From an uncultured virus (IMG/VR IMGVR_UViG_3300013121_000021) (taxonomy: Duplodnaviria > Heunggongvirae > Uroviricota > Caudoviricetes): a stretch of DNA of 64,000 nucleotides. Location: the IMG/VR virus record IMGVR_UViG_3300013121_000021. One strand, 5' to 3'. Below are positions 4,241-64,000 of this stretch, in pieces. The first letter of the stretch is position 1. Every line of letters starts with the position of its first letter. The notes beneath the pieces are model-generated. The model had not been told where the DNA came from. It saw only the letters and a list, made by a program, of their open reading frames with translations, and made no database searches. The translations under genes and the position numbers were made by a program.

Positions 4241-4258
4241 TTTTATTTACCTCTTGAA

Positions 4259-5521
4259 TTAAATAAATTCATCTGAATTATCAACTATACCAATCATTGA
4301 ATAATTTTTATTTACTATACTTATCCAATTTGAATTATTTCCTACTTGTGTTATTGATGAAATTACAGAATTTATAGTTATTCCTAATACTGGATAATAT
4401 GGGATTCCAGTATTATCACCCCAAGCCCAAAGAGTCCCATCTGTTTTAATAGCTGATGTAGAATATTTTCCAACAGATACATATTTCCAGCTATTTGATG
4501 CATTTTCTATTAACCCTGGAATATTTCTACCATTACTATATATGGTTATAGATATGCCTAAACTCCAACGCATATCGTATCCCCAAGTCCATAATGTACC
4601 ATCAGTTTTAATTGCAGCCGAATGAGTATAACCACAAGAAACTTGTTTCCAATCAGCAGTGGTGCCAACTTGTCTTGGAGTTAATATATTTGATGCGGCA
4701 CTACTTACTCCTAATTGCCCATAATTATTCATTCCCCACATCCATAAAGTACCATCTGTTTTAATAGCTGCACTATGATAACGATCGACAGATATTTGAC
4801 TCCAATCAGTACCTGTACCAACTTGAACTGGGGAAGATCTATTCGTTATATTACTTAAACCTAATTGACCATTATAATTATAACCACAAGTCCAAAGAGT
4901 ACCGTCTGTTTTTACAGCTATAAAATGTTTATATCCACAAGATACTTGCTTCCAATCGGTACCTGTACCAATTTGAACTGGGGAAGATCTATTCGTTATA
5001 TTACTTAAACCTAATTGACCTAAATCATTAGAACCCCACGACCATAAAGTACCAGAGGTTTTAACTGCTACATTAAAATATATACCACAAGATACTTGTT
5101 TCCAATCAACCCCAGTTCCTATTTTAATTGGCGTAGATGAACTAGTAACAGTACTGTTTCCTAATTGACCATAACCATTATAACCCCAAGTCCATAATGA
5201 TCCATCAGTTTTAATTGCTGCTATATGTAACGAACCAGCAGTATCCGTATAACACATATCAACTTGTTTCCAATCAGCATTAGTTGTATTTAATAAAACT
5301 GATGTATTAATTGTTATTCCATAAGTAAAACCAAGTGTTGGAGAAGCCGTTTTAATACTACCAAATCCAACTAATGCACGATGAGCTATTTTAGGATCTT
5401 CTACTAATTGATTATAATAACGTAATAATTTATTTTTAGTTAAAAATTTTTCACCTAAATCAATATTATTTTCATCAGGTCCTTCTTTAAAATTTGTTTG
5501 AATAGAATAATTATCAGACAT
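4259..5521 (-). CDS. RCC1-repeat beta-propeller protein
   Basis: About 7 repeats of AIKTDGTLWTWGxNxxGQLG. Confidence 0.9.
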   Translation of the reverse strand: MSDNYSIQTNFKEGPDENNIDLGEKFLTKNKLLRYYNQLVEDPKIAHRALVGFGSIKTASPTLGFTYGITINTSVLLNTTNADWKQVDMCYTDTAGSLHIAAIKTDGSLWTWGYNGYGQLGNSTVTSSSTPIKIGTGVDWKQVSCGIYFNVAVKTSGTLWSWGSNDLGQLGLSNITNRSSPVQIGTGTDWKQVSCGYKHFIAVKTDGTLWTCGYNYNGQLGLSNITNRSSPVQVGTGTDWSQISVDRYHSAAIKTDGTLWMWGMNNYGQLGVSSAASNILTPRQVGTTADWKQVSCGYTHSAAIKTDGTLWTWGYDMRWSLGISITIYSNGRNIPGLIENASNSWKYVSVGKYSTSAIKTDGTLWAWGDNTGIPYYPVLGITINSVISSITQVGNNSNWISIVNKNYSMIGIVDNSDEFI

Positions 5522-5525
5522 ATAT

Positions 5526-6167
5526 TTATTCCCAAGTTGTGGAAATTAATTCTATATCATTTAATTCTGATAATAATGTTTTAGAATCTATTTCCGTCCC
5601 TTTTAAAGCTTCCCAATCAAAAACATTTTGAACATGAGTACTTACAGCTAAAACAATTTGTCCTAATTCAGTATTTGAAAGTGTTAGCCAAATTGGACCT
5701 TCAAATTTCCAATTAGCTCCATTACTTCCTAATTGATAAGCTTGAAGATATAATCCTCTATCTTCTCTACTCGTATATAATTTAACTTCTGTTTCTTGAA
5801 TTGTTGATTTTACTCCTTGAATTTCATATTTATACCTATTAGCGGCAACTATTTGTTTTAATTCCGCTTTAACTGTATCAATATTCTTATCTACTGGAAC
5901 ATAATACATTTCTGCATATGTTGAGAAGAAATTATAAAATGGTCCAGATAATTGTTGTATTTTTGGATTATATTCAGTATTAGGTCCTAAATCAGTAACT
6001 GGTAATATTCTAATTGTTTCATTAATTGTTATTGGTTCATTATTTGGATTACTTAACGGTAATGCGTAATTTATTTCAAATTCATCTGATAAACAATTAG
6101 AAAACATTACAGGTCGCCAATTCATAGGACCTAATACTACATTATTATTATCTACAATTATAAACAT
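5526..6167 (-). CDS. Tail-fibre assembly-like protein (DUF4376-like C-terminus)
   Basis: K..VAANRYKYEIQG...WKF...HVQNVFDWE pattern; lies among fibre genes. Confidence 0.55.
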   Translation of the reverse strand: MFIIVDNNNVVLGPMNWRPVMFSNCLSDEFEINYALPLSNPNNEPITINETIRILPVTDLGPNTEYNPKIQQLSGPFYNFFSTYAEMYYVPVDKNIDTVKAELKQIVAANRYKYEIQGVKSTIQETEVKLYTSREDRGLYLQAYQLGSNGANWKFEGPIWLTLSNTELGQIVLAVSTHVQNVFDWEALKGTEIDSKTLLSELNDIELISTTWE

Positions 6168-6173
6168 AATTTA

Positions 6174-8432
6174 TTATTCTGTCATATATTGAATTGCCAA
6201 TGAACTATGATGTCCTGCATTTATTTGTTTCCAATTAGCAAGTGTTCCAATTTGGATTGGTGAAGAACTAGAAGTTGTAGTACTATCCCCTAATTGTCCA
6301 AAAGAATTATCTCCCCAAGCCCAAAGTGTACCATCTGTCTTAATAGCAACTATATGATTATCTCCACCATTAACATGTTTCCAATTTGTATTTGTACCTA
6401 TTTGTATTGGTGAAGATCTATGGGTTCTCGTACCATCTCCTAATTGACCATAAGAATTAGAACCCCAGGACCAAAGTGTACCATCAGTCTTAATAGCAGT
6501 TATAAATGAATCACCACATGTTAATTTTGTCCAATTAGATCCGCCAGCTAAAGTCTGTTTTGGAGACATATTAGAAGTTGTAGTACTATCCCCTAATTGA
6601 CCATCACCATTATAACCCCAAGCCCAAAGTGTACCATCCGTTTTAATAGCTGCTGCAAAATAATTACCAGCTGAAACCATTTTCCAATTAGATCCGCCAG
6701 CTAAAGTTTGAACAGGTGAATGTATTGCCCATATTATACTTGTTCCTAATTGATAAATAGCGTTTGAACCCCAAGTCCAAAGTGTGCCATCAGATTTAAT
6801 TCCAGTATGAAAATATACCCCAGAACTAATTTGAGACCAAGTGGGTGTATTATAATTGGTTTGAACTAAAACTGAAGTATTTGCATTAATATCTGATTGA
6901 ATTAATAATTCTGGGTCTGCAGTATAATTTCCCCAAGTATATAAATCTCCATTTGTTTTAATACCTACTGCAGAGGTATTTGCAAAATATATATGATACC
7001 AATCTGTACCTTGAAAACATATTTCATTAGGAATACTAAAATTTCCAGTTCCAGATCTGTCTGAAGATGCACATAAATAATTTCCTTTTTGTCCCCAAAT
7101 CCATAAAGTACCATCAGTTTTAATTGCTGCTGAATTATATTTTGTAGCTATTACTTTCGAATATGTAGTATCAGCACCGATGATTTGAATTGGATAAGAT
7201 TTATTTACAACAGTGCTATCACCTAATGCTGCTGTTATATTATTACCACAGGAAAAAAGTTGACCAGTTGTTTTAACTGCTGCAAAATGAGTACAACCAC
7301 AAGATACTTGAGACCAATCAGTACCACCTAATAATGTTTGAATTGGTGTACTTCTATGAACTCTATCACTTCTTCCTAATTGTCCATATGAATTAGCACC
7401 CCATAACCATAAAGTACCGTCGGTTTTTACAGCAGCCGTAAAATGTAAACCACATGAAACTTGATTCCAAGTTGTACCTGCGGTTATAGTTTGAACTGGT
7501 GATAATCTCCATGTAGAAATTAATGAATTACCTAAAACTCCTAATGTACCACCACCCCAAGTCCATAATGAACCACCTGTTTTTACAGCTGCTGTATGTA
7601 ATTCACCACATGATACCTGTTTCCAATCAGTACCTGTACCAACTTGAACAGGAGACGATCTAGCTGTTAAATTACTTTGACCTAATTGACCAAAAGAATT
7701 TGATCCCCATGTCCATAAAGTACCATCTGTTTTAATAGCAGCTGTATGATATCTTCCAAATGATATTTGTTTCCAAGTAGTATTAGCACCTATTTGGGAT
7801 GCAGAACTTCTAATTGTACGTGTCCCATCTCCTAATTGACCATAAGTATTTGAACCCCACATCCACAATTCATTTGAAGCATTAACTGCGCCTAGGTGTT
7901 CATTATTAGTTCCATCATTAAGATTATAACCATCTTCATACCAAACACCTTGAGTTAATTCTGTAGCTAAATATGGAACTTTTGTATCTACTTTTCGTCC
8001 TATCTGCTCATGTGTATTTAATCCACACGTCCATAAAGTACCATCATTTTTAAGAACAATACTGGAACCATAGGCAAGAGATACAAATTTCCAATCAGTA
8101 TCAGATACAATATTTTCAGTAGGGATTAATTTATCTATAGTAGTACTTAATCCTAATTGACCAAAATAATTATCTCCCCAAAACCATAAAGTTCCATCAT
8201 CTTTTATACCGGCAGCATGTAAAAATTTTATACTTGCAGATCTCCAAATACCAGTATTAGTAATTTGAACTGGTGATGATCTATGTGTAGTAGTACTTAA
8301 CCCTAATTGACTATAAGAATTACTTCCCCATAACCATAATGAATTAGGTCTAAGATAATCATCTATAAAACTTTGATCATTTATAAAATAATTATCAAAA
8401 TCGCCAGTTTCTTTTGAGCTAAATTTAGACAT
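6174..8432 (-). CDS. RCC1-repeat beta-propeller protein
   Basis: More than 10 RCC1 repeats (AIKTDGTLWAWGxNxxGQLGD...SP). Confidence 0.9.
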   Translation of the reverse strand: MSKFSSKETGDFDNYFINDQSFIDDYLRPNSLWLWGSNSYSQLGLSTTTHRSSPVQITNTGIWRSASIKFLHAAGIKDDGTLWFWGDNYFGQLGLSTTIDKLIPTENIVSDTDWKFVSLAYGSSIVLKNDGTLWTCGLNTHEQIGRKVDTKVPYLATELTQGVWYEDGYNLNDGTNNEHLGAVNASNELWMWGSNTYGQLGDGTRTIRSSASQIGANTTWKQISFGRYHTAAIKTDGTLWTWGSNSFGQLGQSNLTARSSPVQVGTGTDWKQVSCGELHTAAVKTGGSLWTWGGGTLGVLGNSLISTWRLSPVQTITAGTTWNQVSCGLHFTAAVKTDGTLWLWGANSYGQLGRSDRVHRSTPIQTLLGGTDWSQVSCGCTHFAAVKTTGQLFSCGNNITAALGDSTVVNKSYPIQIIGADTTYSKVIATKYNSAAIKTDGTLWIWGQKGNYLCASSDRSGTGNFSIPNEICFQGTDWYHIYFANTSAVGIKTNGDLYTWGNYTADPELLIQSDINANTSVLVQTNYNTPTWSQISSGVYFHTGIKSDGTLWTWGSNAIYQLGTSIIWAIHSPVQTLAGGSNWKMVSAGNYFAAAIKTDGTLWAWGYNGDGQLGDSTTTSNMSPKQTLAGGSNWTKLTCGDSFITAIKTDGTLWSWGSNSYGQLGDGTRTHRSSPIQIGTNTNWKHVNGGDNHIVAIKTDGTLWAWGDNSFGQLGDSTTTSSSSPIQIGTLANWKQINAGHHSSLAIQYMTE

Positions 8433-13079: not shown

Positions 13080-16000
13080 TTATCCAACAACTACAACTGT
13101 ATATTGTCCAGATGTTGGGGCAACGGCAAAAGTAAGAGTACAAGTAGTAGTAGAAGTTAAACTAATATCTGGATAGACAACATCATAAGAAGTTGAATCA
13201 AATACTAATACTGCAACATTTCTAGAACCAATATCATGTGTAACTACTATAGAAGTTAATGCACCATTACCAACTGTAGTTGAATATTTCTTTAATATAT
13301 TAGATGCTGAAATTGTACCAGTTACACTTAAATTATTATTAACTGTGGTAGTACCAGTAGCTGCACCAATACTTAAAGTAGTTGCTGCTCTAAATGCATT
13401 AATAGTAGTAGCTGTAGTATTAAATACATCAAATGAAGCAGATGAAGTGACTACACTTGTTTCAAACGATGGAGATGTACTAAATACTGCTTTCGCGCCA
13501 CTAGTATATCCAGTTTCATCAGAAAGAACTCCTGCTAGCTGAGCAGAAGTAGTTGCTGCGAACTGCGATAATGCGGTTCCAGTATATGCTACTGTACCGC
13601 CTGTACCAAAAGCTACAGAAGATGTGTCAGTACCACTAAAAGTTAAAGTACTATTACAAGTAAGAGTTTTACCATCTGCTATTGTTAATACTGCGCTAGT
13701 AGCAGGAGCTGTAATTGTAACTTTATTAATAGAGGTAGCAGTTGCAACACCTAATGATGGAGTAGTAAGAGATGGGCTAGTTGCGAAAACAAGAGCACCA
13801 CTACCAGTTTCATCAGAAATAACCCCAGCTAATTGCGCAGAAGTAGTTGCTGCAAACTGAGCTAATGTCCCACCAGTATATGCTACTGTACCACCTGCAC
13901 CAAAAGCTACAGAAGATGAATCCGTACCACTAAAAGTTAAAGTATTATTACAAGTAAATACTTTACCTGCAGCAACAGTTAATCCACCACCAAATGCAAC
14001 AGTTATTGCATCAGTACCTGTAAAAGTTAAGGTATTACTACAAGTAAGTGTTTTACCATTAGCAATAGTTAAAGTAGCAGAAGTAGCAGGAGCTGTAATT
14101 GTAACTTTATTAATAGTAGAATTAGCAGTTATTGCACCACCAAAATATGAAGCTCCAGCCGCTACATATAATGCATAAGGATTTGTAATTGTTACATTTG
14201 CGCCATTAGTTGGTGCACCTGCAATATAAAATGAAGCGGCATTTGTATATGTTACTGTCGCATTAGTAGCAGCAATAGTATTAATAGCTATAGATTCAAT
14301 AACACCCCAAGCAGCAGTACCGGAGGCTGCAGTCGAATTATCTGTAAAAGTAGATGCTAAATTTTGATAGGCAATACCAGCTGTTCCCCAAGCAGCAGCT
14401 GTTAAATTACCAGAACTAGTAACTGTACCTCCAACAAATAATCCTTTAGCAATACCAACGCCACCACTAATAACTACTGCTCCAGTTGCAGTGGAAGTTG
14501 TTGCAGTTGTAGAATTAAAAGTAGTAGTACCAGTAACTGCGCCAAAACTAATAGTCGTGGCAGCTCCGAATGCATTAATTGTTGTTGCGGTGGCATTAAA
14601 TACATTTTGAGTTGTCGAGGCACCAACAATAGTACCACTATTAATAGTAGTTGAACCAGCAATTGAAGAACCAATATTAATATTTGTAGTAGATCCTGCT
14701 GCACCATTAGTACCAATATTTACTGTTTTAGTGGTTGCAGTCGCAGTCGCACCAGTAGCGAAATTATATGTAGATGCTGCCGTTGAACTGCCACCAATAG
14801 TAACCGTCTGAGCACCTGCTGCACCACCAATAGCTAAAGTAGTAGCTGCGCCAAAAGCATTAATTGTAGTAGCGGTAGTATTAAATACATCAAATGAAGA
14901 AGATCCGGTTACTACTGAAGTTGTAAAACTTGGAGATGTACCAAATACTAATACCCCGCTACCAGTTTCATCAGAAATAACACCTGCTAATTGAGCAGAT
15001 GTGGTAGCTGCAAATGCACCTAAATTATTAGAAGTTGTTGCTAATGTACCTGAAGTTGGTAAAGTAATTGAAGTGGCGCCACTTACTGTTAATGTAGTAG
15101 TGTAAGCCCCACTAAATGTAACATTACCACCAATAGTAATAGTAGAAGATCCATTATTAACACCAGTACCACCATAAGTACCAGTAATTAAAGAACCTTG
15201 CCAAGTACCAGAAGAAATGGTCCCAACACTAGTTAAACTGGAAGCTGTAACTCCACTCCCTAATGTTGTTGCACTTAATACTGATGTATTATTAATTTTA
15301 TATACTAATCCAGAAGATAAATTCCAAGATTGATTGGCCGTCCAATTATCATTAGTATTATCCCAGATAATCGTCTTATCTGTACTTCCTTTAAGAGAAA
15401 TACCACCACCATCAGCAGTAGTGTCTGTTGGTGTACCGACTGCACCTAGTTCAATTAATTTATCATCTACTGTAATAGTAGTAGCGTTGATTGTAGTCGT
15501 TGTTCCATTAACAGTAAAATTACCTGTTACGACTAAATCAGAATTAACAGTAGTTGTGCTAGTTGTATGTCCTATTGATACAGTCGGTGAACTAATAGTA
15601 GTTGTTCCACCATTAGAAGAACCGATATTAACATTAGTAGTAGAAGATGCTGCTGCACCTGTACCAATATTAACTGTTTTTGTTTTTGTACCAGCAGTAA
15701 CACCAGTAGCTAAATTATATGTTGAGGTATCAGTTGATCCACCACCAATTGTGAGTGTCTGTGCAGCTGCTGCACCACCAATAGCTAAAGTAGTAGCTGC
15801 ACCAGCAAAATTAATAGTTGTTGCAGTAGTGTTAAGTAAATCAAATGATGAGGATCCAGTTACAATAGAAGTTGTGATTGTTGGCGATGTACCGAATACT
15901 AATAACCCACTACCTGTCTCATCAGAAATAACACCTGCTAGCTCAGCAGATGTGGTGGCTGCAAATGCACTTAATTTACTTGAAGTAGTTACTAATGTAC

Positions 16001-49385: not shown

Positions 49386-49615
49386 ATCTCCTCCTTTATA
49401 AATTCTTCGATTATTTTTACTAACTGAGTATTAATATCTGGTTTTTGAAAATCTATATCTAATAATTTTTCTGTTAATGATGTTTTTGTTTCTTTAACGG
49501 CAGATTTCCAACAGTGATAAAATTGTTTTGTAAATTGATAAAAATAATTATTAGTATTTTCTATCTTATTTGTTGGGATACCATTTTGTTTTGCCCATAC
49601 TTCAAATTGATTCAT
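49382..49615 (-). CDS. Hypothetical protein
   Basis: 77 aa, ATGA-coupled. Confidence 0.55.
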   Translation of the reverse strand: MNQFEVWAKQNGIPTNKIENTNNYFYQFTKQFYHCWKSAVKETKTSLTEKLLDIDFQKPDINTQLVKIIEEFIKEEI

Positions 49616-50448
49616 AACCCTATTATTTTATGAGAAATATTATCTTTAGAACTATTTTTAATTTTATACATTTCGGCATCAGCTATATCAATTAAATCTT
49701 GTGATAAATAAATTTGATCTACTTTTTCACAATTAATTGATAAAATTCCATAACTACATGATATATTTAATTTTTTAAATTTTATCTTAATTTTATTTCT
49801 TATTCTAGATATTATTTCGCTTGCATTTGATGGAGAAGATTCTACTAATATTATTGCAAATTCATCTCCTCCCATTCTAGCTACAGAATCTATTTTTCTT
49901 ACAGAAGTTTTTAATATTGTTGCGAATTCTTGTAATACTTTATTAGCTTGTATATGTCCTAATTTATCATTAACGTATTTAAATCCATCTATATCTAAAA
50001 ATACAATGGTTAACCATTTTTTATATCTATAACATCTATTTACTTCATTATCTAATAAATAGTTAAAATGATCAATATCATATAATTTTGTTAATGGATC
50101 TTTAATACTTATTTCTTTTATTTTTTCAATTTGTTTAGATATAACTGATAAAATTAAAGGAAATACAATTAGTGAAAATATAATTTGTGAATTATACATT
50201 AATTTTAATTCTTCCATATCCTTTGGAATTATTGGAAAATATATATCATATAATTTTAAAGAAAAAGTTATAATTGAAAGTATTATTAATAATAATCTAT
50301 CTACTATCCAAACACATAATATAAATTCAATAATATAAACTGGACATGGTACTATATAATATGTAAATAAATCAATATATAACGTTAATGATAAAATTGA
50401 TGTTACTATAATTGATTTTATAAAAAAACTACAACAATTTTTAATCAT
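49612..50448 (-). CDS. Membrane-anchored GGDEF (diguanylate cyclase-family) protein
   Basis: Hydrophobic N-terminus; DPLT, DIDGFKYVND.LGH, RxxD I-site (RKID) and RMGGDEF. Confidence 0.9.
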   Translation of the reverse strand: MIKNCCSFFIKSIIVTSILSLTLYIDLFTYYIVPCPVYIIEFILCVWIVDRLLLIILSIITFSLKLYDIYFPIIPKDMEELKLMYNSQIIFSLIVFPLILSVISKQIEKIKEISIKDPLTKLYDIDHFNYLLDNEVNRCYRYKKWLTIVFLDIDGFKYVNDKLGHIQANKVLQEFATILKTSVRKIDSVARMGGDEFAIILVESSPSNASEIISRIRNKIKIKFKKLNISCSYGILSINCEKVDQIYLSQDLIDIADAEMYKIKNSSKDNISHKIIGL

Positions 50449-50963: not shown

Positions 50964-51000
50964 ATTCACCGGTACACAATAAATATGTATACCGGTGAAT
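50964..51000 (-). terminator. Terminator-like hairpin after the tasA-like gene
   Basis: ATTCACCGGTA...TACCGGTGAAT stem followed by U-rich sequence on the minus strand. Confidence 0.6.
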
Positions 51001-51008
51001 TTTTATTC

Positions 51009-52016
51009 TTAGGCCGCCTTCTTTTCCCTCTTCGGAGGCTTCTCAAAGATCTCCCTCAAAGTCCTTTGAGGGTGAGTGTACCCCAATTTCACCTGTTCGT
51101 ATCTTCCCTTGAGTGGCAGATTTTCGAATTGTCGCCAATATGTCCACATATCAGCGAGAAATTCCTTGATCATATAACGCACTGCGGCGTTATGCTTATG
51201 ACCTTTGGATTTTCCTTCCCAATTGGGATGCATGTCAAGACGTTGCTTGTAATTATCGTAAACCGTACGATATGGTCCACCCATCTTAATGAAAGATGGA
51301 CCAAGAACTCCAAGCAGTTTGGTTTTAACAAAGGGATTAAACGTAATCCCTTTCGTCTTAACCAGTTCACCTTCCATGTCGATATATTCCTTATCGACCA
51401 AGTGTGCTTTTCGGCGCGAACGCCCTTCCGAGTGGATCACTCCATCATCATCTTCATAGACGACAACGTCCACCCCACAGTACTTGTGAAGCGCAGCGAT
51501 CGAATTACACTTAGTAATATCGATCTCCGACAAAATAACGCCTGCCATTCGCGGTCCAACTCCATGGACATTGACCAAGTAATAATTGTAGAACGGGTAA
51601 TTTACCAATTCTTTAGCTACCAATTCAGCATAGATGTCTTCGGAGGCTCGCATGTGATCAAAAGCTTCGAAGATGCGAATGTCATCTTGCGTTTTCAAAA
51701 GAGTGATTTCCTTATCTTCTTTGTAGTTTTTCGGCAGACGAACCCGACGCTTCGCCATGTCCAATACCTCGTCGGACATCAGGCGGTTTTCAATCTTGAC
51801 TTTCGTCTTGATGTGGTCATACTCTTCCTTGAGGATCTTGAGCAATTTCTTGCTCTTCTCTTCTTGCTCATCCTTGTTTAAGGCGGCATATTGCTCCTCG
51901 GTTAAACCGAGGGCGTTTCTGAAGATTTGTACCAGCCGATTGCCGATACTAATCCTCAATTTCTGTTGGTCGTACATCGTACGAACCAGCATCCCAAGAC
52001 GGGACTTCATACTCAT
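51009..52016 (-). CDS. Nop/IS110-like RNA-binding protein without a nuclease domain (TasA-like TIGR-associated protein)
   Basis: N-terminal helix LVRTMYDQQKLRISIGNRL; VHGVGPRMAGVILSEIDITKCNSIAALHKYCG aligns with the IS110/Nop helical motif (IPGIGP..A..LLAEI......L..YAG); FNPFVKTKL...YDNYKQRL...HKHNAAVRYMIKEFL. No RuvC DEDD or HNH motif. AGAGGA RBS. Confidence 0.8.
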   Translation of the reverse strand: MSMKSRLGMLVRTMYDQQKLRISIGNRLVQIFRNALGLTEEQYAALNKDEQEEKSKKLLKILKEEYDHIKTKVKIENRLMSDEVLDMAKRRVRLPKNYKEDKEITLLKTQDDIRIFEAFDHMRASEDIYAELVAKELVNYPFYNYYLVNVHGVGPRMAGVILSEIDITKCNSIAALHKYCGVDVVVYEDDDGVIHSEGRSRRKAHLVDKEYIDMEGELVKTKGITFNPFVKTKLLGVLGPSFIKMGGPYRTVYDNYKQRLDMHPNWEGKSKGHKHNAAVRYMIKEFLADMWTYWRQFENLPLKGRYEQVKLGYTHPQRTLREIFEKPPKREKKAA

Positions 52017-52085: not shown

Positions 52086-52100
52086 ATATAATATCTATAT
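52086..52100 (-). promoter_or_regulatory. Promoter-like motif ATATAGATATTATAT upstream of the tasA-like gene
   Basis: Exact 15-mer about 70 nt upstream of the start codon. Confidence 0.6.
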
Positions 52101-52513: not shown

Positions 52514-52543
52514 AAACCAGATCAGATAATACTGATCTGGTTT
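52514..52543 (-). terminator. Intrinsic terminator
   Basis: AAACCAGATCAG/CTGATCTGGTTT stem followed by a U-tract on the minus strand. Confidence 0.65.
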
Positions 52544-52703
52544 CGTCGGGATATATTGAAAACTAATTGAAATTTCAAATATTTTGTCAATTAAACGAGG
52601 AGGAGAACTCTTCAACTAACAACTCAAAAATAGAAATATTAGTTTTTTTCCGACAAGTTGTATATTCATTAACAACTTGTTAAATTATATCTATATATTT
52701 TTC

Positions 52704-54458: not shown

Positions 54459-54821
54459 TTATACTTCGAATATTGGAGTTGGTTTTAATTTTTCAAAAAC
54501 GCTCTCAATATATGTTAATGGAGTATTGTTGTCAAATTTGGCAATAATTTGACCTAAATGTCCATCTTTTCGAAGAAACATTTTTTTCTCCGATTGATTA
54601 TAAGCGAACATATAAGTCTTTCCATTAATTGTCAACCAAACTCTCGATCGCGTCCGTCCACATTGTGATTGCCAAACTTCAAAAGGAACACCGCGATCTT
54701 GTTTCCATGTTGCATGTCCTAACAAAGTAGGAATAATATTTCTAATTGATGGGACATGATGATTTACTGCAGATTTTCCATAATCAAAAAAATCGCGGAG
54801 ATCAAAAGTTTTTACTTTCAT
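54459..54821 (-). CDS. Protein resembling the integron cassette family VCH_CASS14
   Basis: HH......I..L.G...WK.D...VW..INGK.Y.F.YN...FDN.TPL..I...F..L pattern, recognised from memory. Confidence 0.55.
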   Translation of the reverse strand: MKVKTFDLRDFFDYGKSAVNHHVPSIRNIIPTLLGHATWKQDRGVPFEVWQSQCGRTRSRVWLTINGKTYMFAYNQSEKKMFLRKDGHLGQIIAKFDNNTPLTYIESVFEKLKPTPIFEV

Positions 54822-54870: not shown

Positions 54871-54921
54871 AAAAACTAAAAAAATCTCAGAAATCCATTC
54901 TGAGATTTAAATTTTTAAATG

Positions 54922-55242
54922 TTAATGAGCAAATATACCCAAAATGGGTATATGCTGCATTATCCCCAAATATGGGGTATTGTTATACTTCGCCAACTGG
55001 CGTTTCTTCCTTTCGAGACGCATTTCCATATCAACCAATTGCATCTGCCGTTCGTATTGAATCAACTGATCTTCCGTGATCTGAGCTTGGAACTGTCCAC
55101 GTGTACTATTCAAGTACGCTGTGTCAGAGCCAGCCCCTATTGATGAAATACTGCTACCCGGACGGGTAACAGCACAACCACTTATTGATACTGCTCCAAA
55201 TGCTAGGAGCAGTATCAGCAACCAAGTAATTAACTTGTTCAT
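54922..55242 (-). CDS. Putative lipoprotein
   Basis: GAGGAG RBS; MNKLITWLLILLLAFGAVSISGC lipobox-like signal. Confidence 0.65.
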   Translation of the reverse strand: MNKLITWLLILLLAFGAVSISGCAVTRPGSSISSIGAGSDTAYLNSTRGQFQAQITEDQLIQYERQMQLVDMEMRLERKKRQLAKYNNTPYLGIMQHIPILGIFAH

Positions 55243-55253
55243 GATATTACTCC

Positions 55254-55679
55254 TCATTTTGGAACAGGAGGTGTATTCGGAGGTAACCATGGCGGATAAT
55301 ACGGAATCATTCCGCCACCGCCCATACCACCGAACATACCACCGAAACCACCATAAGGCACAACGACCGGATTATTAGGCTTGGTGATATTGTATCCCCA
55401 AGCATTGGTTTCGACTTGCATCCTGCGAGCTTCGTTTTCCGTTTGTTGGTCTAATAAGTAACTCATCCTGTCCATATTACGACTTTGAACTGCATTCCAT
55501 TGCGCTACCGCCGCAGTGGCGGTAGAGATTCTCACTTCCTGTGCGTTCGGCACAGGAGTTTGAAAGCACCCAAAAAGTGCTATAGTCGTTAAGAACAACC
55601 CAATCCATAGAACAAATCTCACCATCCCTGGTAAGATATTAATCTCCTTGCGGAGATCATTGATAAAAGTATTATTCAT
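55254..55679 (-). CDS. Putative lipoprotein with Gly/Pro-rich tail
   Basis: AGGAG RBS; hydrophobic stretch ending ALFGC. Confidence 0.65.
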   Translation of the reverse strand: MNNTFINDLRKEINILPGMVRFVLWIGLFLTTIALFGCFQTPVPNAQEVRISTATAAVAQWNAVQSRNMDRMSYLLDQQTENEARRMQVETNAWGYNITKPNNPVVVPYGGFGGMFGGMGGGGMIPYYPPWLPPNTPPVPK

Positions 55680-55718: not shown

Positions 55719-55733
55719 ATATAATATCTATAT
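55719..55733 (-). promoter_or_regulatory. Promoter-like motif ATATAGATATTATAT
   Basis: Exact copy upstream of 55679. Confidence 0.6.
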
Positions 55734-57106: not shown

Positions 57107-57379
57107 TTAATATTTTTCTATATCTTCTTCATCATAAACTAATTCATATGTATGATTACATCCAGTGATTTGTATAATTGACCTATCATCTAAATGTAAT
57201 CTTTCTATTATTTTAGAAAGTATTTCTTTTAAATTTTCATTTTCTTGTCTTAATAAATCTAATCTACCTTCTATATCACTTCCACATAAAAGTGAATTAA
57301 ATTCTGTTGAAAGATCTATTAAATCTTTTATTGATACTTCTTTTATATTATTAAGTTCATATTTTTTTCTTATTTTCAT
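57107..57379 (-). CDS. Hypothetical protein
   Basis: 90 aa, ATGA-coupled. Confidence 0.55.
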   Translation of the reverse strand: MKIRKKYELNNIKEVSIKDLIDLSTEFNSLLCGSDIEGRLDLLRQENENLKEILSKIIERLHLDDRSIIQITGCNHTYELVYDEEDIEKY

Positions 57380-57696
57380 AATAATCTTAATATATAAGTT
57401 TCTTTTAAATATTGATCTGTTATAAAATCTAATAAATATCTAATTATAGCAGTATTAATATATTTTGGATTTCTAGTTTGTCGTTGTAATAGATGAATAG
57501 TAAATAATATAAATTCATCTGAACTTTCAAATTCTGTTTCTAAAAAATATGGTAATTTATATGAAGTAAATCCTTCACCTATTAATTGAATTATAAAATG
57601 ATTTTGTGCTTTTTTTATAACTTTATTTTTTTCAAATTGAATCTCAGTAAAAATAGTTATGTCGTAGTTGTCCAAAAGAATCTTAATCACATACAT
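57376..57696 (-). CDS. Tandem paralogue family member 9 (C-terminal E-Y-x-x-L-K-Y-like motif)
   Basis: Ends LDFITDQYLKETYILRLL. Confidence 0.6.
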   Translation of the reverse strand: MYVIKILLDNYDITIFTEIQFEKNKVIKKAQNHFIIQLIGEGFTSYKLPYFLETEFESSDEFILFTIHLLQRQTRNPKYINTAIIRYLLDFITDQYLKETYILRLL

Positions 57697-57961
57697 ACAT
57701 AAAAAAATAATACTCTTTTTTAAACTGATCTGGTATAAAATCTATTATATAATTTATTACATCTTTAATACATTCATCATAAAAGTATTCTTTTTTAATG
57801 TATTTTATTATTTTTAATATAAATTCTTCTACTAAATATTCTTTTTTATTAAGAGTTCCCGGTATTACTAAAGCAGCTACGAACGGCGCTTGTGGCCATA
57901 TTGATATATTAATTATTTTTGTTTCTATTTCTGAATAAATAGTGATATCAGTATTAAACAT
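57683..57961 (-). CDS. Tandem paralogue family member 8
   Basis: Ends IDFIPDQFKKEYYFFMYVCD. Confidence 0.6.
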   Translation of the reverse strand: MFNTDITIYSEIETKIINISIWPQAPFVAALVIPGTLNKKEYLVEEFILKIIKYIKKEYFYDECIKDVINYIIDFIPDQFKKEYYFFMYVCD

Positions 57962-58292
57962 ATAATAATTTATAATACTCCTTTATATCTTGATTATCTA
58001 ATATTTCTAAAAAATAATTAAATAATATGTCATAATTAATATCATTTCTAATTGATATAAGTATCATAAAATTTTGATTACAAAACTCTTTAAGTAAAAA
58101 AAATGGATCTTTTTTAATTATATCTATAAATTTATCAATATTAAATATAAGTTGCACTTTATTTTTTCTATTTATTTTCCGAATTTTAATCTTTATTTTT
58201 TCATCATCAATAATTTCAAATATTATATTAATTTTTATAGATTTATTCTTTATAGTATTAAATTTATTTACTTTAATAGATATTTCAAGCAT
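57954..58292 (-). CDS. Tandem paralogue family member 7
   Basis: Ends NQDIKEYYKLLYV. Confidence 0.6.
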   Translation of the reverse strand: MLEISIKVNKFNTIKNKSIKINIIFEIIDDEKIKIKIRKINRKNKVQLIFNIDKFIDIIKKDPFFLLKEFCNQNFMILISIRNDINYDILFNYFLEILDNQDIKEYYKLLYV

Positions 58293-58644
58293 ATTTTAAT
58301 ATATAATATTCTTTTAATAATGGGTCATCTATTATATTAAAAAAATAATATCTAAAATTATCACATATAATATCTGAAAAAATTAAATCATTTTGATCGC
58401 AAAAAAACTTTGGTATAAAATATGGTTTATCTTCTAAATTATCTAAAACCCATTCAATTGTCGAAAAGAATTCAACTGGTTTATAATTATCACAATGAAT
58501 TTTAAAATTTAACATATCTGAACTATTTTTTTCAATAATAACATTTAATTCTAAATAGTTTAGAGCTATTGATGAACTTAAAATATTTTGACTTAGATTT
58601 GAAGAATCATCTACTGATATAATACTAACACCAATTTTAAACAT
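58285..58644 (-). CDS. Tandem paralogue family member 6
   Basis: Ends DPLLKEYYILKYA. Confidence 0.6.
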   Translation of the reverse strand: MFKIGVSIISVDDSSNLSQNILSSSIALNYLELNVIIEKNSSDMLNFKIHCDNYKPVEFFSTIEWVLDNLEDKPYFIPKFFCDQNDLIFSDIICDNFRYYFFNIIDDPLLKEYYILKYA

Positions 58645-58990
58645 ATTTTAACCTTAAATATTCTTGAGTATATTTATTTTGTATAAAATTCATTAAATGT
58701 AGCATTATTTCTTTCTTTCCTTCATCTGTTATGTTTAAATTATTTGGAAAATAAACATAATCTATTAATTGTAATATAATTTCATCTGATTCTACTCTAG
58801 AACATAATTTTTTTATGTTTTGTTTTCTTCTTTTTATAGAAGATAAATTTAATAAATGTACTTTTGGTAATTGATGAGTAAAATCATATATTATTACTGT
58901 TTGATATTTATTATTTTTACTAAGTTTCGAATAAATTGTAATTGGTTTAAATAATTCTTCTGATTTAAATTCATAAAATTCAGTAGTCAT
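58637..58990 (-). CDS. Tandem paralogue family member 5
   Basis: Ends NKYTQEYLRLKYV. Confidence 0.6.
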   Translation of the reverse strand: MTTEFYEFKSEELFKPITIYSKLSKNNKYQTVIIYDFTHQLPKVHLLNLSSIKRRKQNIKKLCSRVESDEIILQLIDYVYFPNNLNITDEGKKEIMLHLMNFIQNKYTQEYLRLKYV

Positions 58991-59355
58991 AAATATTTTA
59001 ACTTTAAATATTCACGTTCATGGTTATCTGGATAAAAAGATATCAAAAACTGAACGATATGTTTTCTATCTTCATCATTATTATTTATATCTATTATTTT
59101 TTTAATAAAACTTTCTAATTTCTTTATATTTTTAAACTCTTTCTTTTCTATTCCATAAGCATGTGCTTGAGAATAAGTAGTATCATAAATTATAATATGT
59201 TTACTTTCTACCATAGAAAAAATTGTAATTGGAGATATAATTATACTTGAATCAATAGAAAAATCATAATGCATACGGAATAAATGTTTTGGTAAAACAC
59301 CTAACGGCCCAGTATAAGTTATTGGAAAGTTATGTATTTCTGTGCTAAGTTTCAT
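58987..59355 (-). CDS. Tandem paralogue family member 4
   Basis: Ends DNHEREYLKLKYL. Confidence 0.6.
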   Translation of the reverse strand: MKLSTEIHNFPITYTGPLGVLPKHLFRMHYDFSIDSSIIISPITIFSMVESKHIIIYDTTYSQAHAYGIEKKEFKNIKKLESFIKKIIDINNNDEDRKHIVQFLISFYPDNHEREYLKLKYL

Positions 59356-59654
59356 ATATATTTTAACTTTAAATATTCGCGTTCATTTATATCTTTAATA
59401 AAATCTAATATATATAATATAATTTCTTTTTTATTATTTTGCACATATGTATAATCAATAAATTTTAATGTTTTTTCTATTAATTTTTTTAATTTTTTAT
59501 CATTTGTTTGTTCATATAATTCTAATTGATACGTATATGATTCTGGTTTTCGAATAGACAAATCCCATATACTTAATCTTTTAAGATTATAATTATGGTT
59601 ATTATTTGAAAAAACTAATACACTTTTTTGTTTAGTTAAAATAATATTTAACAT
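59352..59654 (-). CDS. Tandem paralogue family member 3
   Basis: Ends DINEREYLKLKYI. Confidence 0.6.
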   Translation of the reverse strand: MLNIILTKQKSVLVFSNNNHNYNLKRLSIWDLSIRKPESYTYQLELYEQTNDKKLKKLIEKTLKFIDYTYVQNNKKEIILYILDFIKDINEREYLKLKYI

Positions 59655-59995
59655 TATATATACTTTAACTTTAAATATTCTTTAAAAAAAGGATCTAATG
59701 AATATTGGATTACTTGTTCTATTGCTGGATTACATAAATGAGAACTTCTAATGTATAATTTTAAAGATTGAATTGTTTTTTCTATTACTTCATTTGAAGT
59801 ACTTTTTTCTACTTCATTTGAACCAAATTTAAATAAATATTGAAAATTATGAGAAATTGGAGTATGTGTTTTTTCAAATTCATCTTCAACATCATGAAAA
59901 AACATTCTCATTGTTAAATTTACTTTAATAAATTTATTACTATCGAACGGCGAATATATTGAAACTTCTAAACTAAATGGATGTTTTGCTATCAT
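59654..59995 (-). CDS. Tandem paralogue family member 2
   Basis: Ends DPFFKEYLKLKYI. Confidence 0.6.
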   Translation of the reverse strand: MIAKHPFSLEVSIYSPFDSNKFIKVNLTMRMFFHDVEDEFEKTHTPISHNFQYLFKFGSNEVEKSTSNEVIEKTIQSLKLYIRSSHLCNPAIEQVIQYSLDPFFKEYLKLKYI

Positions 59996-60348
59996 ATATA
60001 TTTTAATTTATAAAATTCTTTAATATCTTGATTATAAATTAATTCAATTAAAAATTTTATAACATAATCATGATGAACACTTCTTGAAAATATAAATGAA
60101 AAGAATAAATTATTATCTTTAGGATCAATTTCTTCTACTATATCTATCATATTTATAGTATCTATTAATAATTTATCCATATTATTATATTCTAATATAG
60201 TTTTAGTATTATAACTTAGAATATGTAAAGTTCTTTCAAAAGAAAACATTAAATAAATTATTGTAGCTCCTCTTTTTATTTCATTTTCTTTTACATTAAA
60301 TCCCACCATAGAATAAAATTCTATTCTAGGAAAATTATTATCTATCAT
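59992..60348 (-). CDS. Tandem paralogue family member 1
   Basis: Ends NQDIKEFYKLKYI. Confidence 0.6.
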   Translation of the reverse strand: MIDNNFPRIEFYSMVGFNVKENEIKRGATIIYLMFSFERTLHILSYNTKTILEYNNMDKLLIDTINMIDIVEEIDPKDNNLFFSFIFSRSVHHDYVIKFLIELIYNQDIKEFYKLKYI

Positions 60349-60353
60349 AAAGT

Positions 60354-60384
60354 AAAAAAGCTACTGAAGCTAAATTCAGTAGCT
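60354..60384 (-). terminator. Intrinsic terminator closing the array transcript
   Basis: AGCTACTGAA/TTCAGTAGCT 10-bp stem followed by a U-tract on the minus strand. Confidence 0.7.
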
Positions 60385-60392
60385 GTATTTAA

Positions 60393-60503
60393 TTATTTTT
60401 TAATAAAGAGTGCTTCCAATATTTTATATACTGAAAGTAATCCTATACCAACTAAAACTAATCCAGAAACTTCTTTTACTGTTTTGTACTTATCTTCTTT
60501 CAT
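60393..60503 (-). CDS. 36-aa single-transmembrane peptide (not in ORF track)
   Basis: MKEDKYKTVKEVSGLVLVGIGLLSVYKILEALFIKK; lies between the array and the terminator. Confidence 0.5.
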   Translation of the reverse strand: MKEDKYKTVKEVSGLVLVGIGLLSVYKILEALFIKK

Positions 60504-60541
60504 AATAAAAATTTAATGTGGTTGGGACAGATTCCCCATTA

Positions 60542-62736
60542 TGATAAAATTAAGGGTTTAGTATCTATTCAATCACTTTGTTAAAATTCGTGTCCATATT
60601 TCTATTCGAGCAGTATGTTAAAATCGTCCACCATGTAACTATTTTAAGAAGAGTGTTAAAATTTAACTCTTTGTATCTATTTGACAACCGTGTTAAAATC
60701 AGTCTTAATATAACTGATTAACAGTTCTGTTAAAATTTCATTTTCAGTTTTTGATACTGCTTGTTGTTAAAATACGCTCTTCTATTTCTGATATACGGTC
60801 TTGTTAAAATTCCCGCCGGTATTTCTGATAGACTGTCTTGTTAAAATCGTACTCAATGAGTCTTTTTTCATCTCGTGTTAAAATAGAATTGTGTAAGTCT
60901 ATTTACATTTATTGTTAAAATTCGTATATCTAAATCTGATCATACGAAGTGTTAAACTTGTTTCTGATGTATCTATTAATCTTAGATGTTAAAATCAATA
61001 TCGATGATTCTAATTGCCGTAGGTGTTAAAATAAATTCGCTTATTTCTACTTTTGGCAATTGTTAAAATTCATCGGTCTGTTTCTGTTTGGCCTAATTGT
61101 TAAAATCGGGTCCTTTGTTTCTAATTCGAATCCCTGTTAAAATAGAACAGTATGTTTCTGATTTTGATCAATGTTAAAATACACACCACTATTTCTATTT
61201 TGACGTAGTGTTAAAATTACAACTTCTGTTTCTAATAGTAATTCTTGTTAAAATACTTTGTAATGTATTTGTTTGGTTTCGATGTTAAAATTGGCACACT
61301 TGTATTCTAATCAAAATCCCTGTTAAAATTTGCCTTATTGTTTCTAATACCACATAGCGTTAAAATTTACACCTTTGTTTCTGATTCGGGTCAGTGTTAA
61401 AATTTCTCCTTTTATTCCTGATCAAGATGTTTGTTAAAATTCGTATCTTTGTTTCTGATAAGAGGACGTGTTAAAATAAGCGCCTTTATTTCTGATTTAA
61501 AATTATGTTAAAATTTTACTTCATGTTTCTATTAAATAATATTGTTTAAATAAATTCAAGAATTTCTGATTCGCGATAATGTTAAAATCACTTTTCGTAT
61601 TTCTGATGGAGTCTCATGTTAAAATTGTGTGCCATATTTCTGATCTGCGCGCTTGTTAAAATCCAACCCTTTACTTCTGGTTATGGGCGTTGTTAAAATT
61701 GGCTTTTTTATTTCTATTCATGGGAGGTGTTAAAATGCGCCTCATTATTTCTGATCCACATGCTTGTTAAAATTCGTCAGAATATTTCTGATCTGGTTCA
61801 GTGTTAAAATCATCACCTATATTTTTGATCCGGCCGAATGTTAAAATCAGGCCCTTTATTTCTGATCAATATTAATGTTAAAATGGAAGCTCGTGTTTCT
61901 ATTCGTCATCATTGTTAAAATTCTCCTCATTATTTCTGATCAATTTTAATGTTAAAATCCGCCAACCTTATTTCTGATTGTTCATGCTGTTAAAATAAGT
62001 TCATCTATTTCTAATCTACGCCAGTGTTAAAATTCTCAGCATTATTTCTGATCACCTCTGCCGTTAAAATACCGATTGTTATTTCTGATTCGATTTTTTG
62101 TTAAAATGACTGGCCCTATTTCTGATCGGGCCGAATGTTAAAATAACCTGCTTTATTTCTATTTGGGGGAGGTGTTAAAATACGGAACGTTATTTCCGAT
62201 CCAACATCATGTTAAAATAACTGACCTTATTTCTAATCATTCATCCTGTTAAAATAACCAAATTTATTTCTGATTGCTAATTGTGTTAAAATAGAGATTT
62301 ATATTTCTGATTATTTATATTGTTAAAATATTCCACACTATTTCTGATTGAGCCCGATGTTAAAATTAGCACCTTTATTTCTGATCAATATCAATGTTAA
62401 AATAATGAGCTCTATTTCTGATCGGGCCGAATGTTAAAATCGGCTTTTTTATTTCTATTTGCGGCAGTTGTTAAAATTTATCCTCGTATTTCTGATCAAT
62501 ATGTTCGTTAAAATACCGATTGTTATTTCTGATTCGATTTTTTGTTAAAATATTTCCGCATATTTCTGATTAATACTTCTGTTAAAATTAGCGACACTAT
62601 TTCTGATCGAATCAAATGTTAAAATCCACCGCACTATTTCTGATCTAAGAACTTGTTAAAATCGGCTTCGATATTTCTGATTATTCATCTTGTTAAAATA
62701 CCTGTTGCTATTTCTGATTTGAGTTCGTGTTAAATT
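60542..62736 (-). ncRNA. TIGR-like dual-repeat guide-RNA array: 59 units of 37 nt (edge repeat, 9-nt spacer, loop repeat, 9-nt spacer)
   Basis: Plus-strand consensus TGTTAAAAT-N9-T(A/G)TTTCT(GA/AA/AT)T-N9. 60 edge repeats from 60542 to 62728; period 37 except three 38-nt units (starting 60616, 61283, 61950). Strand inferred from the promoter motif at 62768 and the degeneration gradient. Confidence 0.85.
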
Positions 62737-62767
62737 AGAAAAAAATTTAAAAAATCTTTTCTATAAA

Positions 62768-62782
62768 ATATTATATCTATAT
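62768..62782 (-). promoter_or_regulatory. Promoter-like motif ATATAGATATAATAT in the array leader
   Basis: About 31 nt from the best-conserved end of the array, pointing into it. Confidence 0.6.
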
Positions 62783-62879
62783 CAAATAGTATAAAAATTA
62801 ATCGGTAAAAACCCACCCAAATAATCAATACTTAATATTAATTATTTGGGTAAGTATAAAAATAGGTCGGTAAAAAAAC

Positions 62880-63460
62880 CAATCCTATACTTCAATATTT
62901 AATAGATTTTTTATGCTTCCGCGTCTATTAAATATAAATTTTTCGCTTTAATTATCGGCACTTTCCTTTTATTTTTGTATTTAAACCGATACAAATTCGG
63001 GTTTCAACGGATTATCATAGAGTTTTATATAAAAACTATTATACTTATCCTTGCTGTGGTACTCTCGTCTTCAACCGATACCCCACTATCCACAACTCTT
63101 TCATATCTCATACATTCCTATGTACTTCATATAACTAGTGTCATTTTTCAACGCACAACTTTGACGTGCTAGCCTCTACTCAGTAACTTTCCCGGATATT
63201 TTCTTCTCTAGGTAGACGAATCCCCTAGTTAAGTACTTTTAGCTGCTATTTAAGACTTCCGCGCCATAGAATACTTCTATCCGTCCTACTTATTACCTTT
63301 CCGCGCTCTCTCATGTAGCTACGTAGACCCTTCCCCTATATTTTAGTCCTTGCTTTGCGTTACAGTTTATCTTTGCACATCCTCAATGGCTGTGGGATAT
63401 AAACTTTCGCCCAGTTTTAATTCCGCGCGCTACGCTGGAACAACCGTTGAACGGTCACCT
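62880..63460 (-). ncRNA. Candidate large structured non-coding RNA
   Basis: GC-elevated with no convincing ORF; promoter-motif variant at 63461-63475; 8-bp long-range complementarity 63003-63010/63444-63451; repeated GCGCGGAA and TAGGGGA-N3-GTCTAC motifs. Confidence 0.45.
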
Positions 63461-63605
63461 CAATAATTTCTATATATAATGTGACCAAACCCAAAAATTA
63501 TACTTAAGTAACCTAAATGCTATTTTTTATACTAATACTAAAAATGTATAAATGATATATTGTACTTTCTGTTACTAACATATTTTTTTAAAACACTAGT
63601 ATAAT

Positions 63606-63688
63606 TTTTGAAAACACGGAAAATAGTAAAAAAATATTAGTAGAAAAATTTAAGTTACTAATTTTGAAAACACGGAAAATAGTAAAAA
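63606..63688. repeat. 27-bp direct repeat in an AT-rich non-coding region
   Basis: TTTTGAAAACACGGAAAATAGTAAAAA at 63606-63632 and 63662-63688. Confidence 0.8.
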
Positions 63689-64000
63689 CTATATCAAACT
63701 ATTAAAAAATAGTAATATAGTTTATAATTTTTTCCTAATAGGCTTTAAGTTAAAAGCTAGCTCTCTTGGATAAAAAAGTACTAGTATAAAAAAAATTCGG
63801 AAAAAATGCGTCCTATGACCACATAGGAACTCACTCATAAGTAGCATCTTTATCTCTTAAATACATTCCCAAAAATCCCAAAAACAAAAATTTGTTAATG
63901 TAAATTTAAGGTACTAATTCCTTCAAAAGATAAGTTTTTTATGCACCCGACGTATAAACCATCTTTTAGTCTATGTTTTTTCAGTCAAGGTTTTTTCATT

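Follow-up and report, generated by a model that had tools for sequence, protein, structure and literature searches.

A nuclease-free TasA protein and a 59-unit TIGR array as probable unlinked halves of one system in a large tailed phage

The stretch of DNA analyzed here, called the window throughout, comprises 64,000 nucleotides (nt) from an uncultured virus (IMG/VR IMGVR_UViG_3300013121_000021; Caudoviricetes); it is part of a large tailed phage from sewage sludge and has an overall GC content of 29%. Its minus strand carries a tasA gene (51009..52016) and a dual-repeat TIGR array (60542..62736), components of the TIGR-Tas systems described in 2025 (Faure et al., PMC12045711). In total, the observations outlined below are consistent with a dual-repeat TIGR-TasA system whose two halves are unlinked, such that TasA serves an array 8.5 kb away, a reading to which we assign a probability of roughly 0.7. 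Its direct support comes from the family of the protein and its lack of a nuclease domain, from how the array is built, from the agreement between array type and protein clade, and from the separate promoter-like and terminator-like signals of the two units.

The product of 51009..52016 is a TIGR-associated protein of the nuclease-free TasA type. The open reading frame (ORF) is intact, encodes 335 amino acids (aa), and is preceded by AGAGGA, a ribosome-binding site (RBS) that stands about 7 nt ahead of the ATG. In the public copy of the protein (333 aa; contig of 159,064 nt), the second ATG was taken as the start. The NCBIfam model NF052498 (“TIGR-Tas system RNA-guided endonuclease,” 215 positions) matches residues 79-295 with an E value of 1.6e-33 and 116.5 bits against a curated cut-off of 100. 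This model covers the Nop part only, and its name is therefore silent on whether TasA has a DNA nuclease. In Pfam, Transposase_20 gave a sub-threshold 18.8 bits (cut-off, 21.3), no nuclease family, RuvC and HNH included, gave a match, and neither the Nop domain nor DEDD_Tnp_IS110 matched at E values up to 1. When the 64 kb were searched in six frames with the family profile (hmmsearch), tasA alone was found (2e-127; next best E value, 2.7). Relatives of the closest protein, P0002 (59% identity), were not found in the metagenome_contigs collection, and a single-protein scan of viral_contigs was likewise empty. The sequence match to SpTasH is confined to residues 149-315 of TasA.

The predicted structure places the protein more precisely. 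The AlphaFold2 model, built on an alignment of 30 family members, has a mean predicted local distance difference test score of 87.4 and an all-helical N terminus, with three long helices (residues 4-31, 48-77, and 110-137) and no beta-sheet before residue 184. Ranks 1 to 10 of a Foldseek search against the PDB were all TasH or TasR chains (E values of 1.4e-8 to 1.2e-6), and the lower ranks included the IS110-type recombinases ISCro4 and IS621 (E value, about 0.05) and Nop5 (E value near 1). By VIA-align, residues 1-325 of the model superpose on residues 65-307 of TasH (Z, 20.0; 224-225 residues), and the model likewise superposes on residues 110-322 of TaTasR (PDB 9mty; Z, 18.9; root mean square deviation, 2.0; 199 residues). 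IS621 is matched over residues 125-322 (Z, 14.3), leaving its residues 1-124 unmatched, and Nop5 and Prp31 align with the C-terminal part (Z, about 7). The HNH domain of TasH (residues 1-64) and the RuvC domain of TaTasR (residues 1-109) have no counterpart in TasA. The whole model aligns behind these nuclease domains, and TasA therefore corresponds to the part of its relatives that follows HNH or RuvC; DNA cleavage is thus not expected. A coiled coil plus Nop without HNH or RuvC is the TasA architecture as defined in the text of Faure et al. (2025).

These results bear out most of what an earlier note, made from the sequence of the window, had said of the gene. The RBS that it ascribed to the ORF is present; the coiled-coil N terminus that it described is helical and coiled-coil-like in the model; the IS110/Nop motif is weak in Pfam (Transposase_20) and clear by NF052498. 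The absence of RuvC and HNH agrees with the Pfam result and with the way in which the model aligns, and the absence of insertion sequence (IS) ends agrees with the flanks of tasA, where we found only short AT-rich repeats of 74-85% identity and no IS-like element ends or terminal repeats. Its assignment to a TasA-like, Nop-only Tas protein is one on which NF052498, Foldseek, and VIA-align agree, and the fold comparison that it proposed, against TasA/TasR, Nop5, and IS110, matched the Nop and coiled-coil core of TasH and TasR.

The alignment also points to residues that may process RNA. All 30 aligned family members have Y306, and nearly all have H315. In SpTasH, the counterpart of Y306 is Y289, one of two residues (Y289 and H296) reported to process pre-tigRNA in the text of PMC13421893. 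Based on this conservation, we predict that TasA, which probably lacks a DNA nuclease, may keep an RNA-processing loop, with Y306 and H315 as the candidate residues.

The array consists of 59 units and 60 edge repeats in 2.2 kb. Each unit comprises an edge repeat, ATTTTAACA, a 9-nt spacer A, a loop repeat, ATCAGAAATA, and a 9-nt spacer B, which amounts to 37 nt; this is the length of 56 units, and the other three have 38 nt. Edge and loop were assigned from the way in which the array starts and ends and from a duplicated block that spans from spacer to spacer across ATCAGAAATA. According to the text of Faure et al. (2025), TIGR arrays begin and end with an edge repeat, and those at the two ends here are degenerate (AATTTAACA for the first and ATTTTATCA for the last). 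Edge repeats are exact in 53 of the 59 units, along the entire array. Among the loop repeats, 24 are exact; they degenerate along the array until 0-2 per 10 units are exact at its far end, and the variants include ATCAGAAACA in three units and AACAGAAACA in one.

Several features hint at growth of the array through duplication and divergence. A complete guide unit occurs twice (at 62551 and 62107, 12 units apart), and one spacer A, TTCGGCCCG (once TTCGGCCGG), is present three times (62440, 62144, and 61847) with a different spacer B each time. Pairs of spacers A with at most two mismatches number 12, versus 3.1 expected and a maximum of 9 in 200 shuffles, and Tandem Repeats Finder also reports higher-order periods of 74 and 111 nt. 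The GC contents of the spacers (0.43 and 0.46) are above the 29% of the phage, and the repeats have about 20%. The array is also long: according to the text of Faure et al. (2025), arrays most often have 5-15 units. Among 80 IMG/VR relatives, the longest array (locus L060; 28 chained copies) measures about 1.07 kb, around half the length of the array in the window.

Are the gene and the array cognate? The best available evidence is covariation: the length of the unit and the type of the loop follow the clade of the protein. A tree was built from 81 Tas sequences, 69 of them distinct (the window plus the 80 IMG/VR loci), and in it the TasA of the window groups with those of loci L001 and L002 with a support of 0.998. 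Arrays directly flank tas in L001 (44% identity to TasA) and in L092 (46%), a locus from the genome collection that is the closest relative among those with readable DNA. In both, the unit is AGCGAGCCA-N9-AACAGAAACA-N9, or 37 nt. The loop of the window differs from AACAGAAACA at two positions, the L092 array itself holds one ATCAGAAACA loop, and the strand and reading direction of the window array are those seen in the arrays of the relatives. Elsewhere, a period of 36 prevails: it was found in 53 of the 54 IMG/VR loci with a periodic stretch (these 53 include L029, whose 18-nt repeat is coding and not an array), with 37 in L001 only, and among the 18 genome loci with a repeat chain, L092 alone has a period of 37. 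Neither a tas gene nor a tas remnant was found in the 1.26 kb upstream of the array, and no minus-strand ORF of at least 50 codons lies there. Judged by these sequence features, tasA and the array are very probably cognate.

The distance between them is an outlier. A true TIGR array lies on the same strand as the gene and, as the earlier note had stated, 8.5 kb from it, the distance being that from the start of tas to the nearer end of the array. The intervening DNA holds 19 ORFs of at least 57 codons, three further copies of a promoter-like motif described below, and at least three more terminator-like hairpins. In the 80 IMG/VR relatives, a k-mer chain detector found the array no more than 300 nt from the tas match in 66 loci, 2,172 nt from it in one (L022), and no array in 13. 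Among these 13, the repeats of L029 and L077 were judged not to be TIGR arrays and were dropped, and L079 and L075 have small adjacent arrays that the detector had missed, so that the array is adjacent to tas (at most 300 nt away) in 68 of the 80 loci. For 25 loci from bacterial and archaeal assemblies, a chain was found in 18, within 415 nt in 16 and at 690 and 1,194 nt in the others. In a limited literature search covering text of Faure et al. (2025) and of a preprint (Xu et al., 2026, 10.64898/2026.09.09.750476), we met no tas-array distance like 8.5 kb; arrays are described in those texts as upstream of, downstream of, flanking, or inside tas. The former took 5 kb on each side of tas; for the latter, the limit was 10 kb and the median recovered was 5.4 kb.

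There are suggestive signs that tas and array are uncoupled elsewhere too, all of the cases being fragments. A search of IMG/VR for the L001-type repeat pair returned L001 and a five-unit mini-array with AGCGAGCCA and AACAGAAACA in units of 37 nt (L119, 9990-10180, equivalent to about 13,330-13,500 of fragment G006). G006 is a 38-kb viral fragment, 49% complete, in which tas gave no match, even with unfiltered HMMER at E values up to 1. No array was found in the full length of three tas-bearing fragments, G001 (30.7 kb), G003 (59.2 kb), and G005 (30.6 kb), the last of which holds L002, a member of the clade of the window TasA. The repeat pair of the window itself gave two single chance matches in IMG/VR, with no array and no tas.

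Gene and array each carry signals of a separate transcription unit. A promoter-like 15-mer, ATATAGATATTATAT, lies upstream of tasA (52086..52100, minus strand), and a terminator-like hairpin with a 15-pair stem and a T run, which is also an inverted repeat, directly follows the stop codon (50964..51000, minus strand); the promoter motif and terminator that the earlier note attributed to tasA are thus both there. In the array leader, the 15-mer is ATATAGATATAATAT (62768..62782, minus strand), with 31 nt between its end and the first edge repeat. The hairpin with a T run that lies upstream of the leader (62812..62854, minus strand) is long and probably ends the preceding transcription unit, and the array would therefore have its own start. 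A terminator-like hairpin (60359..60384, minus strand) lies about 160 nt after the last edge repeat, with a 36-codon ORF (60392-60502) in between.

The earlier note had also taken the shared 15-mer as a tie between gene and array and had read co-expression from it. The two copies do differ by a single base, as it said; the tie does not follow, since they are copies of a general motif. The pattern ATATAGATATWATAT (at most one mismatch) has 9 sites in the window versus 0.77 expected, a count that 0 of 100 shuffles reached, and each of the 9 stands a short distance upstream of a gene or of the array, in the same orientation. The 15-mer contains a TATAAT-like hexamer, and we infer that the motif is a phage promoter for small accessory units. 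This argues for membership of gene and array in the same expression class rather than for a private link or private co-regulation. The word ATAGAAAAG, which follows both 15-mers, was considered as a private regulatory word of tas and array and was rejected: another promoter pair shares an equally long 9-mer, and ATAGAAAAG occurs 3 times in the window, versus 1.87 expected. Separately, a motif copy at 52682-52696 is followed about 140 nt on by a perfect 12-pair terminator hairpin (52514-52543); the region 52514-52696 (minus strand) could be a short transcription unit, for a small RNA or a 51-codon ORF with a TTG start.

The base composition of tasA sets it apart from its surroundings. Its GC content is 0.45 and its GC content at third codon positions (GC3) is 0.53, and GC3 in the 14 other window ORFs measured is 0.06-0.21. 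L001 and L002, which group with the window TasA in the tree, lie in phage DNA of about 50% GC, have a tas GC3 of 0.64-0.67, and match the window in tas only; in 25/25 genome loci, the GC content of tas is within 0.07 of that of its own locus. From this composition, we posit that tasA is very probably a recent arrival in the AT-rich phage, its source being a lineage richer in GC (about 50%). It occupies a single-gene cassette that is framed by a phage promoter-like motif and a terminator. A pair of overlapping ORFs at 54922-55679 (minus strand) also looks foreign (GC3, 0.43-0.46). One of the two has a lipoprotein-like N terminus and the other is rich in Gly, Met, and Pro, and the pair forms a cassette like that of tasA, bracketed by a motif at 55719-55733 and a terminator at 54882-54908.

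How might such a system work? In the model that we favor, a phage promoter of its own would drive transcription of the array as a long precursor, and TasA would be made from a separate single-gene unit whose promoter is of the same class. TasA would bind the precursor as a coiled-coil dimer, by analogy with the solved TasH and TasR dimers, and would cut it in the edge repeats, probably via the Tyr/His loop at its C terminus (Y306 and H315). The products would be 37-nt tigRNAs, each with half an edge repeat, spacer A, the loop, spacer B, and another half edge repeat. The TasA-tigRNA complex would then bind double-stranded DNA, at sites where one strand is paired by spacer A and its complement by spacer B. 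As it has neither HNH nor RuvC, the complex would not cut the DNA and would instead block transcription or replication of host DNA or of the DNA of rival elements. Dimerization, RNA processing, dual-strand pairing, and repression are all predicted here from published relatives. TasA binds processed tigRNAs, and a non-cutting binder or silencer is raised as a possibility in the discussion, according to the text of Faure et al. (2025); MbTasA represses a reporter and cysG and gives a shift in electrophoretic mobility shift assays, with no cleavage, according to that of Xu et al. (2026). The proposal in the earlier note of a programmable, non-cutting DNA binder or silencer thus matches a published TasA activity, and for that same reason it is not new.

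Several observations weigh against the unlinked TIGR-TasA system proposed here. No target signal was found: spacer A joined to reverse-complemented spacer B, in both orders and with gaps of 0-3 in the window and 0-2 in the loci of relatives, matched no better than re-paired controls. In the window, there were 6 sites with 2 mismatches and 67 with 3 (0-7 and 33-51 in ten controls), and in 1.01 Mb of the relatives' loci there was 1 site with 1 mismatch and 19 with 2 (0-2 and 14-24 in five controls). As to processing, H296 of SpTasH aligns with Y313 of TasA, and the conserved His, H315, comes two residues later. None of the 13 runs in which the stretch is listed is an RNA run that could speak to expression or processing of tasA or the array. 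The AT-rich edge repeat ATTTTAACA differs from the AGCGAGCCA of the nearest relatives, because of which the compatibility of the array with TasA is a matter of inference. The foreign GC3 of tasA (0.53, against 0.06-0.15), set beside AT-rich repeats, suggests that the histories of the two parts may differ. Lastly, the 64-kb window leaves about 95 kb of the contig in which a second tas could lie nearer the array.

This last point opens the best-surviving alternative, namely, that the array belongs to a different Tas encoded outside the window, be it upstream of 64000 or in another part of the contig. The TasA at 51009 would then be an additional copy, acquired recently and lacking an array of its own, which might or might not use the array of the window. 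The window does end 1.26 kb upstream of the array, within a 159-kb contig; the foreign GC3 and the unfamiliar edge repeat would both fit, and arrayless tas genes exist in the viral fragments G001, G003, and G005. We nonetheless consider this explanation unlikely, as neither the 1.26 kb upstream of the array nor the rest of the 64 kb holds another tas or remnant and as the 37-nt unit with a 10-nt loop is the type of this TasA clade, shared by only 2/72 other typed arrays. A little less probable again is that there is no working system, the array being an orphan relic or tasA a passenger gene heading to decay. The physical uncoupling, the degeneration of the loop repeats toward the far end, the lack of a target in the window or in the relatives' loci, and the same-type orphan mini-array in the tas-free G006 would all fit; yet the ORF is intact with all family-invariant residues kept, the edge repeats are exact in 53/59 units, both units have a promoter-like motif and a terminator, and the identical sequence recurs in samples of different studies and years. 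An IS110-family transposase, or what is left of such a gene, is suggested by a match to phrog_4285, labeled “transposase” (E value, 5e-32), by the weak Transposase_20 match, and by a phage phiRSL1 homologue (ORF034) annotated as a transposase. This reading is refuted as far as sequence and fold can show: there is no DEDD/RuvC domain, NF033542, the model for IS110, reaches 13.8 bits where the cut-off is 140, the IS621 match is limited to its residues 125-322, no terminal repeats flank the gene, and 68/80 relatives lie beside TIGR arrays.

Returning to the unlinked TasA and array, we tentatively suggest a broader hypothesis, to which we give appreciably less than even odds. The effector and the guides of a TIGR system could live apart and be exchanged separately, and a tasA recently captured from a phage lineage of about 50% GC and inserted into a slot between promoter and terminator would here serve a 59-guide array in trans, for multiplexed, non-cutting silencing of host or rival DNA. 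If true, such uncoupling would explain both the orphan array in G006 and the arrayless tas genes in G001, G003, and G005, and surveys limited to 5-10 kb around tas would miss partners.

How does the locus compare with known systems? The nearest are the dual-repeat TIGR-TasA systems. FpTasA of Flavonifractor plautii (Faure et al., 2025) and MbTasA (Xu et al., 2026), compared here by their published descriptions, are likewise solo Nop and coiled-coil proteins with no nuclease domain. TIGR-TasA arrays likewise have two alternating short repeats, two 9-nt spacers per unit, and an edge repeat at both ends, followed by a terminator; the setting in a tailed phage is shared as well, and by analogy RNA-guided DNA binding and repression without cleavage would be expected here. 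In contrast to those systems, the array of the window is a transcription unit of its own, separated from tasA by 8.5 kb and 19 ORFs; its unit is 37 nt with a 10-nt loop where the published norm is 36 nt; it has 59 units with very AT-rich repeats; and tasA has a foreign base composition. No separate effector was found among the neighbors of tasA, including the ParB-like partner (TasParB) that accompanies some tasA genes according to the text of Faure et al. (2025).

More distant relatives fall into line with the structural results. The Nop and coiled-coil core of TasA superposes on SpTasH from Salicola phage CGphi29 (PDB 9w03, 9w04, and 21kl), whose RNA-processing Y289 aligns with the Tyr of the C-terminal loop, and on TaTasR; the window protein differs from both in lacking their nuclease domains. 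The IS110/IS621 bridge-RNA recombinases (PDB 8wt6, 8wt9, and 9t56) share the fold of TasA in their RNA-binding C-terminal half (Z, about 14), and there is the weak Transposase_20 match; the window locus, in contrast, has no DEDD/RuvC domain and no element ends, and a guide array replaces the single bridge RNA. The box C/D small nucleolar ribonucleoproteins Nop5 and Nop56/58, and Prp31, show a distant Nop-fold likeness, and short box-like motifs flank each spacer in the guides; however, the likeness does not extend to the sequence level, the window showed neither fibrillarin nor L7Ae as a partner, and, unlike in box C/D systems, the target would be DNA rather than RNA. The closest protein from a cultured phage is ORF034 of the Ralstonia phage phiRSL1, also a very large phage, with 32% identity over 91% of the query; it is directly followed by 1.4 kb without annotated genes, the place expected of an adjacent array.

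RNA-guided repression by TasA, with no cutting, is known, and the locus leaves the known mechanism unchanged. What is particular here is the unlinked layout, the very long array of 37-nt units, and the recently acquired effector gene. The locus offers a clean natural case of tasA and a very long array as separate transcription units with many genes between them, in which array and effector need not be neighbors. The layout bears on the tas loci that lack an array in surveys, given the 6,685 arrays for 20,096 tas loci in the text of Xu et al. (2026), and on how “arrayless” branches are read. For array growth, the clues are the duplicated unit, the spacer A reused with three spacers B, and the edges kept while the loops drift.

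The stretch is present in 13 DNA runs labeled as sludge, digester, or soil, from 7 studies, and 92% of its sampled words were found in one run. Contigs from three other studies carry, as presence only, identical portions of both tas and the array. Neither the metagenome_contigs nor the viral_contigs collection contained an exact 36-mer taken at the window end.

The neighbors of tasA encode a GGDEF protein, a superfamily 1 helicase, a VCH_CASS14-like protein, and proteins without an assigned function. The first is a phage-encoded protein with a diguanylate-cyclase domain (49612-50448, minus strand; Pfam E value, 2.8e-33) and a hydrophobic N-terminal half. The VCH_CASS14-like protein (54459-54821, minus strand) is small, matches this Pfam family of integron cassette proteins with 37.9 bits (cut-off, 26.7), and has a promoter-like motif preceding its gene. 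Adjoining the array, nine tandem paralogous small ORFs of 92-122 aa occupy 57376-60348 (minus strand), and most of them share a C-terminal motif like EY(L/Y)KLKY(I/V). None has a PHROG match, and the two that were scanned against Pfam gave no match above the cut-off; as candidate TIGR partners, they were rejected, their profile having no match among loci L001-L090.

Immediately before the array leader, on its upstream side, 62990-63480 is an ORF-free block with a GC content of about 0.40 and a strong minus-strand G excess. It matched neither Rfam nor phage sequences, and we rejected it as a structured RNA or tas remnant (fold z-scores of -0.46 and -1.70; no tas-profile match). RNA families and tRNAs were not found in the window, nor in 60300-64000 at E values up to 1. 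Near the window end, an AT-rich segment (63590-63690) holds a word of about 27 nt, TTTTGAAAACACGGAAAATAGTAAAAA, in two direct copies about 60 nt apart. PHROG matches in the window include tail fibers, baseplate and virion proteins, and a Dda-like helicase. Finally, three large ORFs at 1952-8432 (minus strand) strongly match PHROGs labeled “regulator of chromosome condensation” (RCC1-like repeats) and, lying beside tail fiber genes, are probably receptor-binding proteins.

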